DNA from: Podospora anserina
Taxonomy: Eukaryota
Assembly (NCBI GenBank): GCA_017654855.1
Contig: JAFMPO010000001.1
Span: 1,116,001 to 1,180,000, forward strand
Length of the DNA stretch: 64,000 bases
Direction: 5' to 3'
The translations under genes were made by a program, and so were the position numbers. The notes under the pieces are model-generated. The model saw only the letters and a list, made by a program, of their open reading frames with translations. It searched no databases and was not told where the DNA came from. Shown here piece after piece: positions 3 to 11,645 of this stretch; the first letter of the stretch is position 1, and each line of letters starts with the position of its first letter.

Positions 3-3000
3 AACCTCCCGGTCGTCATCCATGTTGCGCTTGGTCCCAAGAGCTTCCCAGACTACTCGGCCATCACCTCCATCAGAAATTCGGGATGGACCTTCCTCCA
101 GTCCTGGTCCCTCCAGGAGGCTCAAGACATTGCGCTGACTGCTCATGCCTTGGCCATTCGCTCGGGCAAGGGTGTCATCCACTTCTTCGACCCCAGCTCC
201 GGTGCTGTTGCCGAGTCCATTGAGGGCGCGAGCGCCGACGTTGTCCGCGCTGTCCTCAACCTCGACAATGTGCGGAGGTTCCAGTCTGCGCCGATCTCGG
301 GGTCAGGGATCTACGCGGATGATGGGCGGGTCGCCGTGGTTTCTGAGCAGCCGGAACCCCTGGCTCTCTCTGGTGGAGTCACCGCCAACCAAGCAGGAGA
401 GGGTGAAGCAGAAACCCCTCTTCTTACCTCACAGTCGTCAGTCAAGTCCAGTCAACAGAGTGAGACCAGCACGCCACCAAGTGTATCCACTGCAACTACC
501 ATCGAGCCCGCAGCTCCCCTTGTGTCGTCCGAGGATATCTACAAGTACGTCACCGGCATCTGGGCTCAGCTCAACCAGCTTGTCGGCAGGCAATACAACG
601 CCTTCGAGTGGACGGGGTCACAATCGGCCGAAAACACCATCTTCCTCTTTGGCTCAGATGTTGCCTTGTTCTCTGACGCTATTGCCAAGGCACAGTCTGG
701 TGACTCCTTTGCCAACGCTGGCATCGTTGCTCCTAGACTTTACCGCCCGTGGCTGGGCGCCAAGTTGATCGATGCCCTTCCCAAATCTGTCAAGAGGGTG
801 GCAGTCCTTGAGCAGGTGTCGAGAAAGACCACAAAGTGGGGCCCCGTTCTCATCGATGTCTTGACTTCTGTCAAGAGTGCTGTTGGTGGTGTCGAGACTA
901 TTGTTGGGTACCAAATTGGCTACATCACCAAGGAAAGTGTCAAGCAAGCTTTGTCCGGTGTTTTCCAGAACTTGACTCTAGAAAAGCCTGTACAGAACTT
1001 GGAGGTTGGTGAGCGCGAGATTCCTCAGGAGACCTCCGAGTACGACCTTTCGAAGCCCAAGCTTGAGGTTTCTTATACCAAGATCCTCGATCAGTTGTTT
1101 GGAAGCAGAGCCTTTGTCGCCAACTCCCTCGATTCCGACAATGCCGGCGTCTCACGGACCATCTCGGCCACTCCCGAGTATGGTTTCGGCTCTCTCCTCG
1201 CCAGAAAGGAGCGCAGACAAAAGTTTGTTGCCGAGGTCAAGGAGGCCGCCAGCAATGGCCGTTTCCTGACTGAAGTTCCCAAGAGAGCCTTGGCCAAGTG
1301 GGTAGCTAGCGCTGACGATGCGAAGAAGTCTGAGGAGGCTGCCGAGGAGGTTGTTTCCAAGCTTACACTCGACAACTCGACGCCATCAAAGGCCCTGCTC
1401 CAGCACAAGGCATTCTTTCGCAAGCAGTCTCTTTGGCTTGTTGGGTCCGACGCCTGGGCTTATGACCTTGGCAACTCTGGCGTTCATCAGGTTCTGGCTT
1501 CGGGCGAAAATGTCAACCTGCTCATCATTGACTCGACCCCTTACTCTGAGCGCGCTGCCGCTGATGCGAACCGCAGAAAGAAGGACATTGGTCTCTATGC
1601 CATGAACTTTGGAAACGCTTACGTCGCCTCCACCGCCGTCTACAGCTCTTACACCCAGGTTCTTCAGGCTATGGATGAGGCCGACAAGTTCAATGGCCCC
1701 TCTATCGTTCTGGCTTATCTTCCCTACTTTGGTGAGCACGAGTCTCCTTTGACCGTTCTCACTGAGACCAAGAAGGCCGTGGACCTTGGTTACTGGCCTC
1801 TGTACCGGTGGAACCCCGAGAATGAGAAGAAGGGCGAGCCCAACTTCTCTCTTGACTCTGAGCGTATCAAGAAGGAGCTCAAGGCCTTCCTTGACAGAGA
1901 CAACCAGCTCACTCAGATGATGCGGAAGGAACCCCAGTTTGGTGCTGTTCTTGATCAGGACTTTGGTACTGAGATTCGCGCCCAGCAGAAGCGCAAGGCC
2001 AAGGATGCTTACAACCAGCTCTTGGAAGGTCTCTTCGGTGCGCCGTTGACCATTCTGTTTGGTTCTGATGGTGGCAACGCGCAGTCCCTCGCCAAGCGGT
2101 TGGGTACCAGGGGCCGTGCCCGTGGCCTGAAGACCACAGTCATGGCCATGGAGGACTACCCAGTCGAGGACTTGCCAACGGAGGAGAACATTGTCTTCAT
2201 CACCTCGACCGCCGGTCAGGGTGAGTTCCCCGTCAACGGCAAGCCTCTCTGGGATGCCATCAAGGACAGCACCGAGCTCGATCTTGCTTCCGTCAAGTAC
2301 TCCGTCTTCTCTCTTGGTGATAGCCACTACTGGCCCAGAAAGGAGGACAAGGTGTACTACAACAAGCCCGGAAAGGACCTCGATAGGGTTCTGGCCAACT
2401 TTGGCGGTTCCCGTCTGGCTCCTCTGGGTCTTGGTGATGACCAGGACCCAGATGGATACCAGACCGGCTACTCCGAGTGGGAGCCCAAGCTTTGGGAAGC
2501 CCTCGGCGTGTCAAAGGTCGATGGCCTCCCAGATGAGCCTCCCCCGATCACCAACGAGGACATCAAGATCGCCTCCAACTTCCTGCGTGGTACCATCGCC
2601 GAGGAGCTCTTGGACACATCTACCGGCGCCATCTCGGCTTCCAACCAGCAACTGACCAAGTTCCACGGCACATACATGCAGGATGATCGTGATGTCCGTG
2701 ACGAGCGCAAGGCCCAGGGTCTTGAGCCAGCCTACTCATTCATGATTCGCTGCAGACTTCCCGGCGGTGTCTCGACACCAAAGCAGTGGATCCAGATGGA
2801 CGACATTGCCAACGAGCTCGGAAACGAGACCATGAAGTTGACCACCCGTCAAACCTTCCAGTTCCACGGCGTCGTCAAGGCCAAGCTCAAGCCTGCCATG
2901 CAAGCCATCAACCGGGCTCTCATGGACACCCTTGCCGCCTGCGGTGATGTCAACCGTAACGTCATGTGCAGTCCTCTTCCTTCGCAGTCTGCCTACCATC

Positions 3001-4271: not shown

Positions 4272-5145
4272 TTTTTGGATACACAGAATATGGAACAGAA
4301 AATGAGCAACGAGCAGGAGTCATGTAAATAGGGGATATTGGAGGGATGGCTTTTTGTCTACATTGCGAGCGCATTGCATGTTTTATTCTTCTTTTATTTG
4401 TTTGGTGTCAAAATAGGCGTTAAAAACAATTTGATTTGCTGTCTGAAACGATTCTAAATGTGCTTTGAAGTGCCTTGGGTTGCTTGGTTTCGCTGACACG
4501 GTCTGATAAAATAATGTTGCAAGTAAGGAGCCAAAATCGGGACTGTAACACTCTTTCAGATGCCTCCGTAAGCAAAGTAATAGAGATTCTCATGACACCA
4601 ACACCCCTTAATTCGGTATCTTGACAGCCCCCTCAACTATCTTCAAAATAAATTATGTTGAAATGTGGTTAGACCTCCTGATTATCTTCAAGGGCCTATT
4701 AGCTTTCTGTCTCCAATGCCCCCCTTCCCTTCCCAAGTCTCCGTTCTTGATTTCATGACATGGCTGGTGAGACTTCTGAGCAGACCCGTTCATGACATGT
4801 CAAGTCACAGCAAAGTTCCACACATTTATTCCCCTTAAGCTGTAGAAGGGCATCAAAAGTACCATAAGAAAGGGTATTATGTACCTAACGAAAAGCTAGA
4901 AACCAAACAAAGACAAAACAATTATTACCTCCCGCCCAGTTCGTCGTCAAAATTTGTCTATCATACATGACTTGATCATTCATTTCCATACACACATTTC
5001 TTTCATCTTTCCCTCATGCTTTTTTTCTCTCCTCACATAAACGCCCAAAAACACCTGCCCATCCTTCTTCTGTTGTCTAAACATGACAAAAAGCAAGCGT
5101 GCAAAAGAGAGAGAGAGGAGGGGAAGGTGGCGAATGATGAAACCA

Positions 5146-8100
5146 TCACCTCCTAACACTATTAGCAACCCCCTCTCCGATATCTCTCGCTCCGTCCCTC
5201 ATCTTCTCAATCAAACCCCTAGCCCAGTTGGGCACTGCGAACTTTGCTTTGACCCTGCCCTCCACCACCATGTTGATCAAGTTGATGATGGCAAAAGTCG
5301 TGCTCCCCAGGGCTCTGAAGGCCGCCAACGCGGCGACAGACCAGAGAATGAAGCGCAGGTAAAAGTTGTCGCCAATGCCACTGCTGCCATAGATTTCACT
5401 GACTGCCATGGCGAGCGTGGCGTTGGCCACCAACCAGGAAACAACCATGTAGGTACGGACCGACTTGTAGTAATCCTCCTGCAGCTGCGCGTCCGAGGGT
5501 GGCTTCTCGGGCACTTCAATTCTATCTCTGAGGTTGCGGAGGGCCTCGTCGTATCCAGAGTCGATGTCCAACTGCTCAGAGGGCATTTCCAACTCGACAG
5601 TCGAACCGGACCCCTTGCCGACGGCACCACCGAGATCCGTCTTCATGACGTTGTCGCCCTTTGTTCCCCAGGTGACGTCGTGGGTGTTGCAAAAGGCGTA
5701 GATTTGCAAAGTGCAAATGTACGAGGGCAGGAGAATCAGGTACGGGACGAAGGAGGTGAACATGTGCCAGGGGTCGAGGTACATGAAGGACATGACAAAG
5801 TAGAGACCAATAGTCGAGGCTGTCGAGACGATCATGTTGGTGAAGACGTTGTTGCCCATCTCGAGCTCGGACTTGTCCTTGTCCTCCTTCTTAGGGGAGA
5901 GCTGGTGGACGACAATCCAAATCGAGGCGAACAGCGTGTAGATCATGATGACAGCGTAGATGATCATGGACGCGAGGTACATCTTGCGGGAACCCTGGGG
6001 ACGGTTGCCGAGAGACAGGATGAACTGGGTCGAGATCAATAGAACACAGATATACCGGAGGATGGTGAAGATGTAGAGGGCAGCTTTGCCGTCGGCGTCG
6101 AAAGGTGTGACGTGGGGATCGGCAAGACCACCGGCGATGAAGTAGAAGGTGAGGTAGAAATTGGCGAGGGAGAAGTAGGTGAAGAGGAGTTGCAGGAGCT
6201 GATACAAGAACTCAATGTGCAGCAGCACCTTGCGGGCAATGGTGTGGTCGGTGAGCCAGATCTGCTTGAAATGCACCAGGGAATACACAGCGGCGAAGAA
6301 CGCTCCGTTCAGCCAGCGACGACGCTGGGAGACGAACTCGGGGACGGTGTCTTGGGGGTGTTAGCGATATCCCCTTATCAAAACAAAGCGGCAAAAGAAG
6401 GGGCTTACCAGGCACATCTGTCTCACCCGTGCAACCTTTGACGTACTTCAACACCCATCTCTCGCCGCGTTTGGCAACCAGCTCCCAGCACAAGATTCTG
6501 TCCTCGGCCAAGTACATGTTGGCGGTAAACACGTCGGCGTGCTGTCCATGGAGCGTCTCTCCCTTGAAGTACTGGCTCAGTGGCCCGTGCCCCGTTTCGT
6601 CATTCTGGAGCGCATGGTATCGGTACGCACTCAGGGCGCCAGGCAACACGGTGATGTAGCCAAACACCGACTCCAACGGTTTGTCCAGAATATTGGACAT
6701 TTTGTATTCGAAATTCTGTGACGCAACCAGCGGATTCAACAGATTGACTCCGTATTTACCTTTCATTGCTTTAATCTCTCCGCAAGCGCCGGCAACGTTC
6801 GAGTCGGTATCGAATGCCTTCCACAGGTGATATAGCGAGTTGCTCCCAGGCTTGGTTCCGACATCCAGCAAGATACACACGTTTGGGTTTAGCGCCTTGC
6901 CAAATGCGTTGAAGAACCATCTATGCGAGTTTAACTTCTTGGCGTTCTTTTCCTTCAAGCAAAAGATCATTTGGCAGGGCACTATCCCCTTCTCGGCGCC
7001 CTTGAACTTGAGATCCGAATCCAGAGAAACCTGCGTGGTGTACTCGTACACGTGGGCGGTGCAGTTGTGAACCACGGTGCGATCTGCAAGCTGGAAGAGC
7101 TCTCCCGAGACCTCGATGAGGCGGAACTCGCCGTCGCCGGCGTCCTCGACGTCGAAGGGCCGTACGTCCCTGTTCTTAGACGTGGTGAACGGGATCGTCA
7201 TGCGCTTTCGAGGGAGGAGGAGGTGAGGCTGGAACTTCTCCACCCCTCTGCCCATATAAAAGAACCAGCCAGGCTCAGGGCGGTCCTTACCATTCTTCCG
7301 TTCGAAGATAGGGTTACACTGGATCCCGCAGGAGAGGGCTAACTTGCGGGCGTCCTCAACAAGCTTCTTGAGCTCGTAGGTGTACTGGCCAAAGCCGTAA
7401 CAGTTGAGACCGTGAGAAAGCCATCCGTCGGATTCGATGAGGCCTGCGAGAACAGCCAGGCGCGTATTCTCGTCCGCGTTCATGTAGCAGTCGGGGATGC
7501 CACCGCTCTTGTCTCCCAGCAGGCCGAGTTCTCTGAGGCCGTCGTGAACAGGGTTCCAGTGTGTCTTGTCAAGGTTGCTTACAGTGCTCATAACACGCAA
7601 ACGATGAGCGACCTTTGTTGTCTTGATTTCTTCTCCCTTGTAGACGTGTTTTGTGCCGATATCAATCTTGTACTTGGATACTTTGAGAGGCGCTTTTCCA
7701 GGAGGGATACTATCACGGTTCAGGCGGTCGACGAGTGCCTGCGTGTAGACCTCGACCTCCGGATCCGTACTGGTAATCTCACTGTTGTTCTTAGTGCCAT
7801 TACCAAGCCAGAAACCAAACCAAAATGGGTCGATTGGGACAGGTGACACTGAACCCTGATACGGCTGGAACCTCAGGGGCGACCGATATAGTCTTAGCTT
7901 GCTCTTATGCTGCGTCATCGGAGCTGTGCAGGTTGCCTGATACTCCTCCAGCGTCATCGTGAACACCTCCATGTCCTGGACGGCGCAGGGGTCAACCACA
8001 CGGTAGTGATCTCCTGATAGCAGCTCAAGAGCGAGGTCGGCTTGCTCTGAGGTTTCGAAGACAGTCGATACCCTCCGAAGGCCCTTGCAGGACAGATTCT

Positions 8101-10696
8101 GACACTTGCACTTCGGATCACGCACTGCGAGCTTGCTCCGGACAGGGGCGAACATCTCCCTGTGGTCGTCCTCAGTGAGTACAGACGCGTACGTCGGCAC
8201 GGTCGACTGTGAGGCCTCGTTTTGAGACTGCTGTTGGCTGTTAACAGGAGACGACTTGATGGAAGGAGACTGGCGGAAAGTCTTGTCCGAGATGCGGGAA
8301 GACAGCGTGCTGATAGTGCCAATCTTTCTCTTCCGGTTGGTATCAAGATCGATGATCAAGTCGTCGTTGTCCTCGTCAGAGATATCCTCTGGCTCAGGTA
8401 TCATGTGCTCAAGATAGTCCTCCATGTGCTGCTGTAGCAGCATCAATACTACCGATTCATCCTCACCGTCGACGTCCACGTCCATAGCCTTGAGCTTGGC
8501 CAGCAGCTTGATGAGAACAGGACTCTGATATGTCTCTTCAACCCTCTGAGAGTCATCATCTTCAGAATCGGGGACAACTCTCGTAGACGTGATGGCCTTC
8601 AGGTACTTGCGGACCTCAGCATCAGTCGGACGGCGACCCAGCTGCTCACGGTATTCGGTATACAGATCATGCATGGCTGCATCCCACTTGATCTCAACCG
8701 CATCGGCCCCAAGCTCGGTTCGATCGCAACGAGTCCACCACGTAACACGGTTGCTGTTCGAATGCCTGAAGGGCTTGACACCATAAGCCACCAGGGTCAT
8801 GATATGGTCCGGCGTACAGGTGAAGGACGACTTGCTGACGCTGTTGTACCCGGTGTAGGTAACCTTCATCATGCGGGAGGTCTGAATAGCCTCAGCAGCT
8901 AGGCACTGGACGGGTCGGTCCTCGTGGTCGAAGAGCTGGTCTCCTACAGCGATGTCTCGGATGGGCTTGTCACCATTGGTGGTGCGGACCATCGTGTCTG
9001 GAGAGAGACACGTCTTCTGGTTGACGTAATTCTTTGCGATGCCGTGCTGGTAGACGCCCATGGCTGCCAAGGCGTCGAGTGTGCGAGGGTGAATCTTTTC
9101 TCGTCCATCAGACACCACACACACAACGATTTTCTGCCATCCGTTCTCTCCCCACGTTCGTGACTTGTTACGGCTGCAAAAGTGGGAGATGTTCTTCATG
9201 ACAGCGTGCATCGTGCGCGTGAAGCCATACTCGTCTTCGTTGTACATGGTGATGCAAATAAACAATTCCGTCTCGCGGGCGGTCCGGCCAATGTTCTGAC
9301 GCAGCTTGTAGCCCCTTTCAACAAAGTCGTCTGGGTCGCAGGTCACGGCCGTGTAGCGCATATGAGTAAACTCGATTTCGTCGCGGCGCGGGAGGAATGA
9401 GTACAAGATGGTGGGGATCTTGCACTCCAACACGAGTTCACCATTGATAAGCTGCACCTCTCTCTTGCTCATTTGGGGGGCGCGGACACCACGGCGCTCC
9501 TGTCGCCCCTCTGCCGGTGCTGGAACGTAGCGGTCAGCCTTCTCACGAACATCACCATCTTCATCGTAATATTCATTCTCGTTCAGGGTCATTTGATCTG
9601 CCGAGTAGGATGAGTGGGTATGATGGTGCCGTCTGTTGTCAGTGACGTCTGACTCGGGGCCAAAGGGATCGTCGTGATGGCTGGCAAGTGGGATGTTGAC
9701 TGTTGCATCATCGTGAAAGCTGGTCGTCGACTGCATGCCCCTCGTTGGACTGTTGTACATTGGGGCACGGGGAAGGGGTCGGCGCGGAGAGCCTCCGTAG
9801 ACGGTGGAAGGGGTTCCTGGGCGGGGGGCTCCATTGATATCGGCGGGCTCGAACCTGTGGCTGTGTGGTGGTGGGTGGCCGCGTGGAGGGGAATACTCGG
9901 GGGATGATGCTCGTGAAGGGCCCCAACTGCTCTCGTTCATGCTACTCTGATCATACGAAACATACGACTCGGTCGGTGGGTGCATTCGGAGGGGCGGGTC
10001 GAGAATAGAGGACCGTGAATCAATCGATGGTTCGTATGGCTGTCGTCTTCTGCCTCTGTTTTCATTTTCTTGTGAGCCTCTCATCCATACTCTTGACGGC
10101 ACTTGTGGGCTGGGTAGTTGTCTAAGAAATTGTGAATCCGGTGGAGAGCTGCCTGGTGATGTTGCGGCTGTTTCACATCTCGCCTGAAACTGGCGTAACG
10201 ACTTCCTGCGGGGAGAAGGCCCTTCAGGCAGGACAGGAAGGTCCTCGGGAACGACGACAGGGTGGACCGAAGGGGTGAACTTTTTTCTTCTCTGAAGCCT
10301 GAATTTTGGAGTGGCGGGCTGCTGACTACCTGTCTGCATTGTGGCCGGTTTGAAGACATCGGGCGCAGTCCCGATGATGAGAGCGCCGTCTTGTTCTTTG
10401 AGGGCATCGACGTCCACACAAAAGTCGCCGTTGGATCTGGGGGGCAAGGAAAGAGGGGGGGGAATAGAAACGGGTGGTAACACATACGGCCTCTCATGCC
10501 TATCAGATTCCTGATAATCACTAGGGTCCTCCATATCCGTCAACAGCCTGACATTAGAACCGTGGCCATGCGCGGTGCCCATGCCAGTGGTGCTCGATTC
10601 GTGGTGGACATCATCGTAAGCTGGCAGCATGTACTCGGGCGGTACTGGTACGCGTCCGCCTGGCGGGGAGTTGGGCCTGCCGAGCCTGTTGTCCAT
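5146..10696 (-). CDS. CHS2: Chitin synthase (class I/II, CHS2-like) containing an intein
   Basis: Motifs [35 protein letters not shown], and QRRRWLNG once intron 6351-6408 (GTAAGC...CTAAC...AAG) is removed; C-terminal TM region with [12 protein letters not shown] at 10696 (MDNRLG) is a best guess. Possible further intron at 10056-10487. Confidence 0.95.
7064..9010 (-). mobile_element. Intein with LAGLIDADG homing endonuclease (649 aa) in chitin synthase
   Basis: In-frame 1947-nt insertion between KNYVNQKT and [11 protein letters not shown]. Block A CLSPDTMV, block [19 protein letters not shown]-like [10 protein letters not shown] and [12 protein letters not shown], block G TVVHN followed by Cys+1. 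Confidence 0.97.
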
Positions 10697-11645
10697 TGCG
10701 CTTCCTCTCTCAAGAAATCTCAAGGTCGGGCGTGATGGCGCGCAGCCGAGGAATGTGTCTCACGGACACGCGGCACGCTGGAGACAAAGCCAGAGTTGTG
10801 TTGAAAAGTCCAGTGGGGATTGCTGGGAATGTTTGTTAGCTACCAGACGTGTCAAGGAACCGGCGCAAACTTACAACGAGGCGGTCGCAAAGAAGCCGTT
10901 GAATGGCGTGCAGCGTGGAGCAAATGCAAGTTGAAAATGGGGTACACTTGAACAAAGCGCAGAGGAGAGCTTTGAACGGGGCTGCGGGCTCAATACATGG
11001 GATTCTGCAAATCCAGCGTGTGCGCTTCGTTGGGTCGTAATGTTGTCTCCCTTACTTCCCCGCTGTTGCTGGGGCAACTCCACTTTGCTGGGGTTCGGTG
11101 TCGTGCTGTAGCGGCTGCACGGGCCAATGACAGGGCCGTTTAGGTGGACCTGTGCCTTGAAAAGGTGGGGCTTGGCGCGTGGAGGCCCGCCGATGGTGTG
11201 GTTGATCAGTTTGCTGCAGAAGAGTCGCCGTTCATCGACCGCATGGATTGGCCTGTGCGATGATTCGGAAACAATACCCGTGGAGATGTCGAATGCTGGA
11301 ATGGAAACCAGCAAAGTGAAATAAGTGAGGGATGTATGTCAACCGACGTGATTTGAGGCGGAGTGAGAACGAGAAGGCTATGTTGCTCTACCGATGTCGT
11401 AGTGCTGAATAACAGGAGGTTGGGAAGACCAAATAAGGGACCTAGCTCAAGGTGCTTGCGTGGTCTGGTGAAACTGGCAGGGGTCGTCCGCAGGTGTCTC
11501 CATGCCTGTGGCATCATCATTCAGGGCACTGTTGTTCCTTCCTGGTGTATAGAACCCGGAGCAGTCGCGACCTATTTACGGTTACTCCTTCCTCAGCCAA
11601 TCCAGATGACACACCGCCTTGATCCATGAGTTATTGCACTCGATA

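Follow-up and report, generated by a model that had tools for sequence, protein, structure and literature searches.

The window, a 64,000-nucleotide (nt) stretch of Podospora anserina DNA (GCA_017654855.1, contig JAFMPO010000001.1, positions 1,116,001 to 1,180,000 of the forward strand), encodes on its minus strand a division-1 chitin synthase that is interrupted by a 649-amino acid (aa) intein. Residues 96 to 300 of this intein form a segment that was first noticed in the sequence as an unexplained insertion (here called the original prediction). We found that it is a translated, family-wide accessory segment of the PI-SceI-like fungal nuclear inteins of the GLT1/CHS type, and not a passenger of this copy. 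The segment has a fixed position, is conserved and under selection, is transcribed, is acidic in composition, and is retained in homologues that do not splice. The best explanation as a whole is a family-wide accessory segment that has a zinc-clamped neck and a role in the homing phase, and we give this explanation about an even chance of being right.

The minus-strand frame at 6212..10723 has the Pfam domains Chitin_synth_1N and Chitin_synth_1 flanking the intein. The Hint signature of the intein is complete, with Cys1, the block B T-x-x-H (T66 and H69), the terminal H648-N649, and Cys+1. Hint folds align with the intein model at Z scores of 14 to 20. Pfam Hom_end_hint (PF05203) matches residues 5 to 76 only, with 14.7 bits, which is below its gathering threshold of 32.1. 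The intein is inserted between VNQKT and the Cys that follows, unlike the insertion site of most relatives found.

To collect relatives, we did a homologue search with the intein part of the protein. The search returned 43 proteins, and from 28 of them an intein with both ends was extracted. Left out were near-duplicates (P0002 to P0004), truncated proteins (P0021, P0032, P0034, and P0035), and members of other intein families that match only the endonuclease (P0036 to P0043). The hosts of the aligned inteins are chitin synthases, at four insertion sites, glutamate synthase, and Sel1-repeat and SNF5 proteins. Named relatives include Gaeumannomyces tritici, at 88% identity, and Sodiomyces alkalinus. 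The window intein is 54 to 58% identical to the chitin synthase inteins of Diaporthe citri and Fusarium fujikuroi and 46% identical to the D. citri GLT1 intein. This range, 46 to 58% at 100% coverage, places it in the GLT1/CHS family.

Of the 29 aligned inteins, 28 have the segment in a collinear position, with a length of 153 to 249 aa. In P0018, from Sodiomyces, it is only 89 aa and lacks approximately residues 101 to 225. The original prediction had proposed a passenger domain carried by this intein. That idea fails because the segment aligns collinearly with GLT1 inteins, a finding named beforehand as refuting it. Relative to the VMA1 intein PI-SceI, however, the segment is indeed extra, as predicted: the distance from block B to block C is about 318 aa here and about 123 aa in PI-SceI.

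We then built a profile from only the segment (10 sequences, 201 positions) and searched 1,835,955,588 representatives with it, accepting E values up to 0.001. It matched 26 proteins, two of which were already-known family members. Among the 24 new matches, 17 also match intein sequence outside residues 96 to 300, six are fragments of 114 to 173 aa, and one (P0067) is marginal. A search for longer proteins gave 15, namely six chitin synthases, seven glutamate synthases, and two Lipomyces proteins without exteins. A 146-aa fragment (P0057) is 68% identical to residues 113 to 258, with Arg-to-Cys, Pro-to-Leu, Thr-to-Ile, and Ala-to-Val changes, all of them C-to-T transitions. This pattern suggests a copy that was degraded by repeat-induced point mutation.

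The anatomy of the segment agrees largely with what had been read from the sequence. It lies between WWTRC (residues 91 to 95) and CKCQNLSC (residues 301 to 308; 8110..8087, minus strand). All the strings that the original prediction quoted are on the minus strand at the positions it gave, and the approximately 205 aa that it counted are exactly 205 residues (8725..8111). We made two AlphaFold2 (AF2) models. The first, of the whole intein on a 30-row alignment, has a mean predicted local distance difference test (pLDDT) score of 74.6. The second, of residues 88 to 393, has a pLDDT of 66.3 and the same order of elements. The segment starts with a module of four predicted helices (pLDDT about 60 to 88), the first two of which correspond to the helical block seen earlier. 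The S/Q-rich linker seen earlier is modelled as disordered. It is followed by short helices at residues 275 to 295, which include the return helix, in which Val290 and Arg291 are invariant in alignment A4. The loop with Cys303 and Cys308 has a pLDDT of 77 to 89 and leads into strand 311-317 and a confident region that extends to about residue 390. Coordinates are given in Table 1.

The acidic tracts were confirmed as well. The net charge is -17 for residues 96 to 300 and -13 for residues 96 to 204, whereas all other regions of the intein are between -1 and +2. This acidity is kept in the family: the segment has a net charge of -12 to -31 in 28 of 29 inteins, and the adjacent region has -3 to +8. 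The linker ranges from 37 to 136 aa. The GC content and the GC content at third codon positions (GC3) resemble those of the rest of the intein and the host exons, and the segment has no compositional oddity.

We estimated dN/dS (omega) by region in a pair of inteins hosted by glutamate synthase (L008 and L011; dS about 0.58), with confidence intervals from a bootstrap. Omega was 0.30 (0.15 to 0.54) in the helical module, 0.55 (0.30 to 0.91) in the aligned codons of the linker, 0.25 (0.10 to 0.49) in the knuckle with the following DNA-recognition-like region, 0.23 (0.15 to 0.35) in the endonuclease, and 0.17 (0.08 to 0.35) in the N-terminal Hint half. Residues 96 to 140 have a mean identity of 0.56 in the Sordariomycete-type group, and the endonuclease has 0.57. 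These omega values and identities show that the helical module is under purifying selection, with a constraint about that of the nuclease, and that the linker is held more loosely. Neutral evolution, which the original prediction had named as a refuting outcome, is not what the segment shows. An in-frame tandem duplication of 7 aa (HMEDYLE) lies inside the fourth helix of the module in L003 to L005.

The coding status of the segment was examined by comparing window positions 5100 to 10800 with contigs of four sequencing runs (Logan). The contig of run X1 lacks 6351-6408 (58 nt), and that of run X9 lacks both 6351-6408 and 10056-10487 (432 nt). X1 and X9 come from two different studies. Both missing pieces begin with GT and end with AG on the minus strand. 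The X1 and X9 contigs are continuous, with zero differences, across 6409-9858 and 6409-10055, respectively, and cover the whole intein, including the segment. Run X15, which is DNA-like, keeps both introns in one 87.7-kb contig. We infer from the intron-free joints alone that X1 and X9 are RNA derived, no run being on record as RNA. Run X21 carries the same species label, spans only 5100-6264, and is uninformative about an intein-free allele. The intein frame is free of stop codons in 13 of 13 related loci. The open reading frame 6212..10723 reads through both introns; therefore, its ends are not those of the true coding sequence.

Two proteins of Lipomyces tetrasporus, P0071 (644 aa) and P0072 (620 aa), and a third protein, P0050 (613 aa), are free-standing homologues of GLT1-type inteins. 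They start with M-x-x-S-Q-G, with Gly at the Cys1 position, and end at the C-terminal position of the intein. Because they have neither Cys1 nor exteins, they cannot splice. They nonetheless retain Cys36, Cys65, Cys95, Cys361, a C-x-C knuckle, the acidic module, and both LAGLIDADG Asp residues. This retention suggests a role of the module and the Cys cluster in the nuclease or in folding and not in the control of splicing. As in HO and WHO, these proteins may have left the intein lifestyle, which would be a second escape of that kind.

Among PDB structures, PI-SceI matches the fold of the intein best (Foldseek E value, 6.6e-15; VIA Z, 17.0 to 18.5, with 349 to 381 residues aligned). Its domain I (1gpp) aligns with the full model over 193 of 217 residues (Z, 16.0; root mean square deviation, 3.3). 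When the family profile was compared with PI-SceI, residues 209 to 454, which hold the endonuclease and the C-terminal Hint part, matched at an E value of 2.2e-15, residues 1 to 85 matched weakly, and nothing matched between them. Across intein residues 76 to 367 there is no sequence similarity to PI-SceI. An hhalign comparison with P0037, a topoisomerase intein of the Hom_end_hint type, aligned residues 345 to 393 with the part of that intein that precedes block C, and residue 345 is where the FTMTLEEY part starts. Together, the alignments and the model put the segment between the strand that follows block B and a region located where PI-SceI has its DNA-recognition region. The likeness to a VMA1-type DNA-recognition region that had been noticed by eye therefore holds by position and by model, but it has no counterpart in sequence similarity. 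The sub-model of residues 88 to 393 alone had no PI-SceI match among Foldseek's 93 candidates (best Z, 4.2).

The family and fold searches gave no known counterpart of the segment. Pfam gave no family for the segment and 10 family versions of it, and each weak match occurred in 1 of the 10 members only. One of these weak matches was HNH_repeat (PF18780), at an E value of 0.075 on the LGRRPT helix of L007. A PDB sequence search with the segment gave nothing meaningful. When the fold of the 88-393 sub-model was compared with 48,161 chains, the best Z was 6.5, the noise level for helical bundles. DNA-binding helical domains gave a scatter of Z 4.3 to 5.2, all at noise level. In the ESM Atlas the best score was 0.75, below the level reached by shuffled proteins. 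A complex prediction with three chains, setting the helical module against the rest of the intein, scored 0.00, which gives no verdict.

Six cysteines, Cys36, Cys65, Cys95, Cys303, Cys308, and Cys361, are invariant in 30 of 30 and 29 of 29 alignment rows. Cys95, Cys303, and Cys308, which close the neck of the segment, are kept down to 33% identity, a pattern that is not due to chance. Cys65 lies four residues before the block B His and aligns with a Cys in block B of PI-SceI, which makes it a general feature of Hint. Family members have one to six residues between Cys303 and Cys308, and the GLT1 clade has C-x-C. In one glutamate synthase intein (P0051), position 303 is His, and its nearest relative (P0052) has Cys. 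A Cys-His exchange at an otherwise invariant position is the pattern that a metal ligand would show. The original prediction had suggested a four-Cys zinc site. Conserved cysteines do close the neck, but there are three of them in the bracket and not four, and the prediction had counted Cys301, the first Cys of CKCQNLSC, which occurs in only 3 of 29 inteins. The presence of a zinc site is, from this pattern, slightly favored over its absence, and Cys361 is the best candidate for the fourth ligand.

Two short motifs stand out in the linker. A SUMO (small ubiquitin-like modifier)-interacting motif has a hydrophobic psi-psi-x-psi core flanked by acidic residues in a disordered region. LIIDLD resembles this consensus, which we take as a lead. 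A strict pattern of this type fits 22 of 29 inteins, Asp221 is present in 26 of 29, and the region has a pLDDT below 50. A classical monopartite nuclear localization signal (NLS) has a basic cluster of four K/R residues. The NLS-like RKRK of the original prediction was located at residues 226 to 229, but only 13 of 29 inteins have such a cluster, of which 12 are hosted by chitin synthases and one by SNF5. A second basic cluster, PRKR, is found at residues 600 to 603, with Arg601 and Lys602 in 29 of 29 inteins. It aligns with a basic stretch of P0037 and therefore belongs to the wider nuclease scaffold.

We compared these features with known systems; the statements on published work below refer to the parts of each source covered by our search. 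The GLT1 and CHS2 inteins were reported in 2005 to 2007 (PMC1635734, PMC1508164). Yeast GLT1 inteins are 553 to 607 aa long, and those of the GLT1/CHS2 type are full-length LAGLIDADG inteins with 553 to 650 aa (PMC5056185, Table 1 for the latter). Green et al. 2018 placed the glutamate synthase and chitin synthase inteins (GLTi/CHSi) in one cluster with 48 to 57% similarity and intragenomic transfer, and this family is the published case of such intein transfer in fungal nuclei (PMC5784728). The fungal GLT1/CHS2 inteins (PanCHS2, PanGLT1, and yeast GLT1) are of the same family as the window intein. That literature treats them as ordinary endonuclease-bearing inteins, and neither the segment nor the Cys cluster is described in what was searched; Poulter et al. 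2007 and the supplements of Green et al. 2018 lay outside its scope.

The closest structural parallel is PI-SceI, whose DNA-recognition region is an insertion in Hint of the accessory-domain kind (PMC8966425). In the window intein, too, the accessory region would lie within Hint, between blocks B and C. The window intein differs in having about 195 extra residues, the invariant Cys cluster, and strong acidity. According to Beyer et al. 2022, endonuclease inteins have accessory domains of diverse structure that modulate the cleavage of DNA, and these domains are thought to decide which sites can be cleaved and hence survival by moving (PMC8966425). The archaeal examples (TliVMA, PhoVMA, PI-PfuI, and domain IV of PI-TkoII; PMC8966425) share the concept of an extra, cleavage-modulating domain. 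However, they lie between the endonuclease and the C-terminal Hint part, whereas the window segment, which is acidic and in part disordered, shares with the PI-SceI region a place in the N-terminal half of Hint. Green et al. 2018 reported that, in eukaryotes, inteins with extra linker sequence occur only in Prp8 (PMC5784728). These HEN(+)extra Prp8 inteins are likewise eukaryotic nuclear inteins with a linker of unknown function, but they exceed 800 aa and some have repeats, whereas the window intein has 649 aa, no repeats, and a conserved helical module. Coughlan et al. 2020 name HO and WHO as the only fusions of an intein with a zinc finger; both are LAGLIDADG nucleases that derive from inteins and require zinc and Cys motifs (PMC7282813). 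They are without exteins, as are the Lipomyces relatives. They carry a C-terminal GATA-like finger domain with three to five CxxC motifs (PMC7282813), whereas the window intein has an internal neck of three or four Cys. A C-terminal multi-CxxC domain of the HO/WHO type is not present in the window intein, since nothing follows Asn649 except chitin synthase sequence.

We suggest the following path of the chain. It would leave the scaffold formed by Hint and the DNA-recognition region after strand 88-94, at Cys95, and form the acidic four-helix module of residues 98 to 201. It would then continue as the disordered linker with the hydrophobic-Asp motif, which carries RKRK only in copies of the chitin synthase type, plus one SNF5 copy. 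The chain would return through a short helix and re-enter by the Cys303...Cys308 knuckle into strand 311-317 of the DNA-recognition-like region. Cys95, Cys303, Cys308, and a fourth ligand, for which Cys361 is the best candidate, may bind a structural zinc ion. The ion would clamp the neck, so that the scaffold could fold despite an excursion of 150 to 250 aa. The most likely role of the segment is in the endonuclease (homing) phase and not in splicing. The enlarged accessory domain may tune or shield the adjacent, neutral-to-basic DNA-binding surface electrostatically, and the linear motifs may serve nuclear entry or chromatin recruitment. We infer both the binding of zinc and the effects on DNA binding, import, and partner binding.

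The main rival reading takes the segment for a tolerated spacer that arose when a permissive loop expanded in this lineage and that has no activity of its own. Selection would then keep it soluble, compact, and clear of Hint folding, with the acidity and disorder acting as an entropic or solubility tag and the Cys cluster merely holding the base of the loop shut. Several observations are what such a spacer would give, including the lack of a known fold or family, the variable linker length, the 7-aa duplication in L003 to L005, and the loss of most of the helical module in P0018. Large linkers of unknown function are also known in Prp8 inteins (PMC5784728, in the part covered). However, a spacer would not readily account for a helical module conserved to the degree of the endonuclease, for a net negative charge, and a short motif in the disordered part, that are kept across hosts and down to 33% identity, or for the retention of the segment in homologues without exteins. 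We consider the spacer possible but rather unlikely. The segment might instead be a metal or redox switch on splicing, in which zinc or oxidation at the Cys cluster alters Hint geometry and gates excision. The original prediction had raised such control. There are invariant cysteines near the Hint core, one of them (Cys65) close to the block B His, and metal inhibition is documented for Prp8 inteins (PMC6805012, in the part covered). However, homologues that lack Cys1 and exteins, and so cannot splice, keep both the cluster and the module. PI-SceI, which is without such a segment, has a Cys at the position of Cys65, and the cluster is distant in sequence from Cys1, His69, and Asn649. A splicing switch is therefore disfavored, and we regard it as quite improbable.

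Two further readings fare worse. A passenger that this intein took up recently, or a role that the excised intein plays for its host fungus, would fit the absence of the segment from PI-SceI, the sole point in its favor. Against it, the inteins of GLT1, Sel1, SNF5, and other chitin synthases carry the segment collinearly, its GC and GC3 are like those of the remaining intein and of the host exons, and the profile and longer-protein searches found no homologue outside the intein family. We hold this reading to be very improbable. That the segment is not protein at all, being an unrecognized intron or an annotation artifact in a long open frame, is suggested by the two introns of the flanking gene that this frame reads through. 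However, intron-free contigs from two studies retain the complete segment, all 13 related loci are stop free, and omega is below 1, which leaves this reading with next to no probability.

The explanation we prefer, an accessory segment with a zinc-clamped neck that acts in homing, has points against it too. The bracket holds only three conserved cysteines, and the fourth ligand is a guess. The module is without a Pfam family or a recognizable fold, its best Z being 6.5. A strongly acidic domain is unlikely to bind DNA directly. P0018 is annotated as a chitin synthase although it is without most of the module, and if its gene model is correct, the intein may be able to do without the module. 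None of the 12 inteins hosted by GLT1 and none of the 3 hosted by Sel1 in the 29-row alignment has RKRK. The dN/dS estimate is underpowered in the closest alleles, L001 to L005, which are 94 to 96% identical to the window (4 to 8 synonymous and 11 to 15 nonsynonymous changes in the insert). Finally, the homologues without exteins are known from protein records only.

The intein family is already known, and as a finding from a single window the result is therefore modest. What appears to be undescribed, in the published work covered, is the conserved and selected accessory segment of 150 to 250 aa, with its probable metal clamp. The segment offers a handle on how a eukaryotic intein reaches the nucleus and chooses new targets. 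It may also offer a compact, insertion-tolerant site for the engineering of PI-SceI-type scaffolds. A bolder, composite reading is that the acidic, zinc-clamped module and the linear motif make this family unusually mobile, either by coupling the LAGLIDADG nuclease to chromatin or SUMO-marked sites or by loosening target recognition, and that this accounts for both the colonized hosts and the Lipomyces escape. We regard this combination as unlikely. If it were true, it would explain how one lineage could colonize at least four chitin synthase sites plus GLT1, Sel1-repeat, SNF5, and kinesin genes, and the Lipomyces genes without exteins would be a second, independent escape of the HO/WHO kind.

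Table 1. Positions of the intein and its elements in the window
Feature	Window positions	Strand	Remarks
Whole intein, 649 aa	7064..9010	-	CLSPDT...VVHN then Cys+1, inside division-1 chitin synthase
Cys95 codon, end of strand 88-94, N-side of neck	8726..8728	-	Invariant in 30/30 and 29/29
Extra segment of 205 aa, residues 96-300	8111..8725	-	Between WWTRC and CKCQNLSC
Acidic four-helix module, residues 98-201	8408..8719	-	AF2; predicted helices 98-124, 130-141, 164-175, 185-201
Disordered acidic, S/Q-rich linker, residues 205-280	8171..8398	-	pLDDT 25-34
LIIDLD, residues 218-223	8342..8359	-	Hydrophobic-hydrophobic-Asp-hydrophobic motif following acidic run
RKRK, residues 226-229, NLS-like basic cluster	8324..8335	-	Sequence
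Return helix, residues 281-295	8126..8170	-	AF2; conserved F-A-x-V-R-x-x-L
Cys knuckle C303-x4-C308-K-G, C-side of neck	8081..8104	-	Cys303 and Cys308 in 29/29
DNA-recognition-like region, residues 311-390	7841..8080	-	pLDDT 80-90; 1gpp alignment
Cys361, candidate fourth metal ligand	7928..7930	-	Invariant in 30/30
Asn404 in first LAGLIDADG motif (G-N-G)	7799..7801	-	Aligns with PI-SceI catalytic Asp218

No tandem repeats were found in the DNA, and no second copy was found within the 64-kb window. The window allele lacks the pair of catalytic Asp residues of PI-SceI-type LAGLIDADG inteins: its second motif has Asp528, and its first has Asn404. Most inteins of the family (24 of 29) and the alleles L001 to L005 have Asp at position 404. 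Because Asn404 replaces the Asp found in these relatives and in PI-SceI, the nuclease of the window allele is probably inactive. Elsewhere in the lineage, the intein P0006 is 87% identical to the window intein and represents one of the four chitin synthase sites that the lineage occupies. The same lineage is also present in a kinesin gene, for which the gene model is truncated. Sel1-repeat, SNF5, and kinesin genes are hosts beyond those in the covered part of the host list of PMC5784728.

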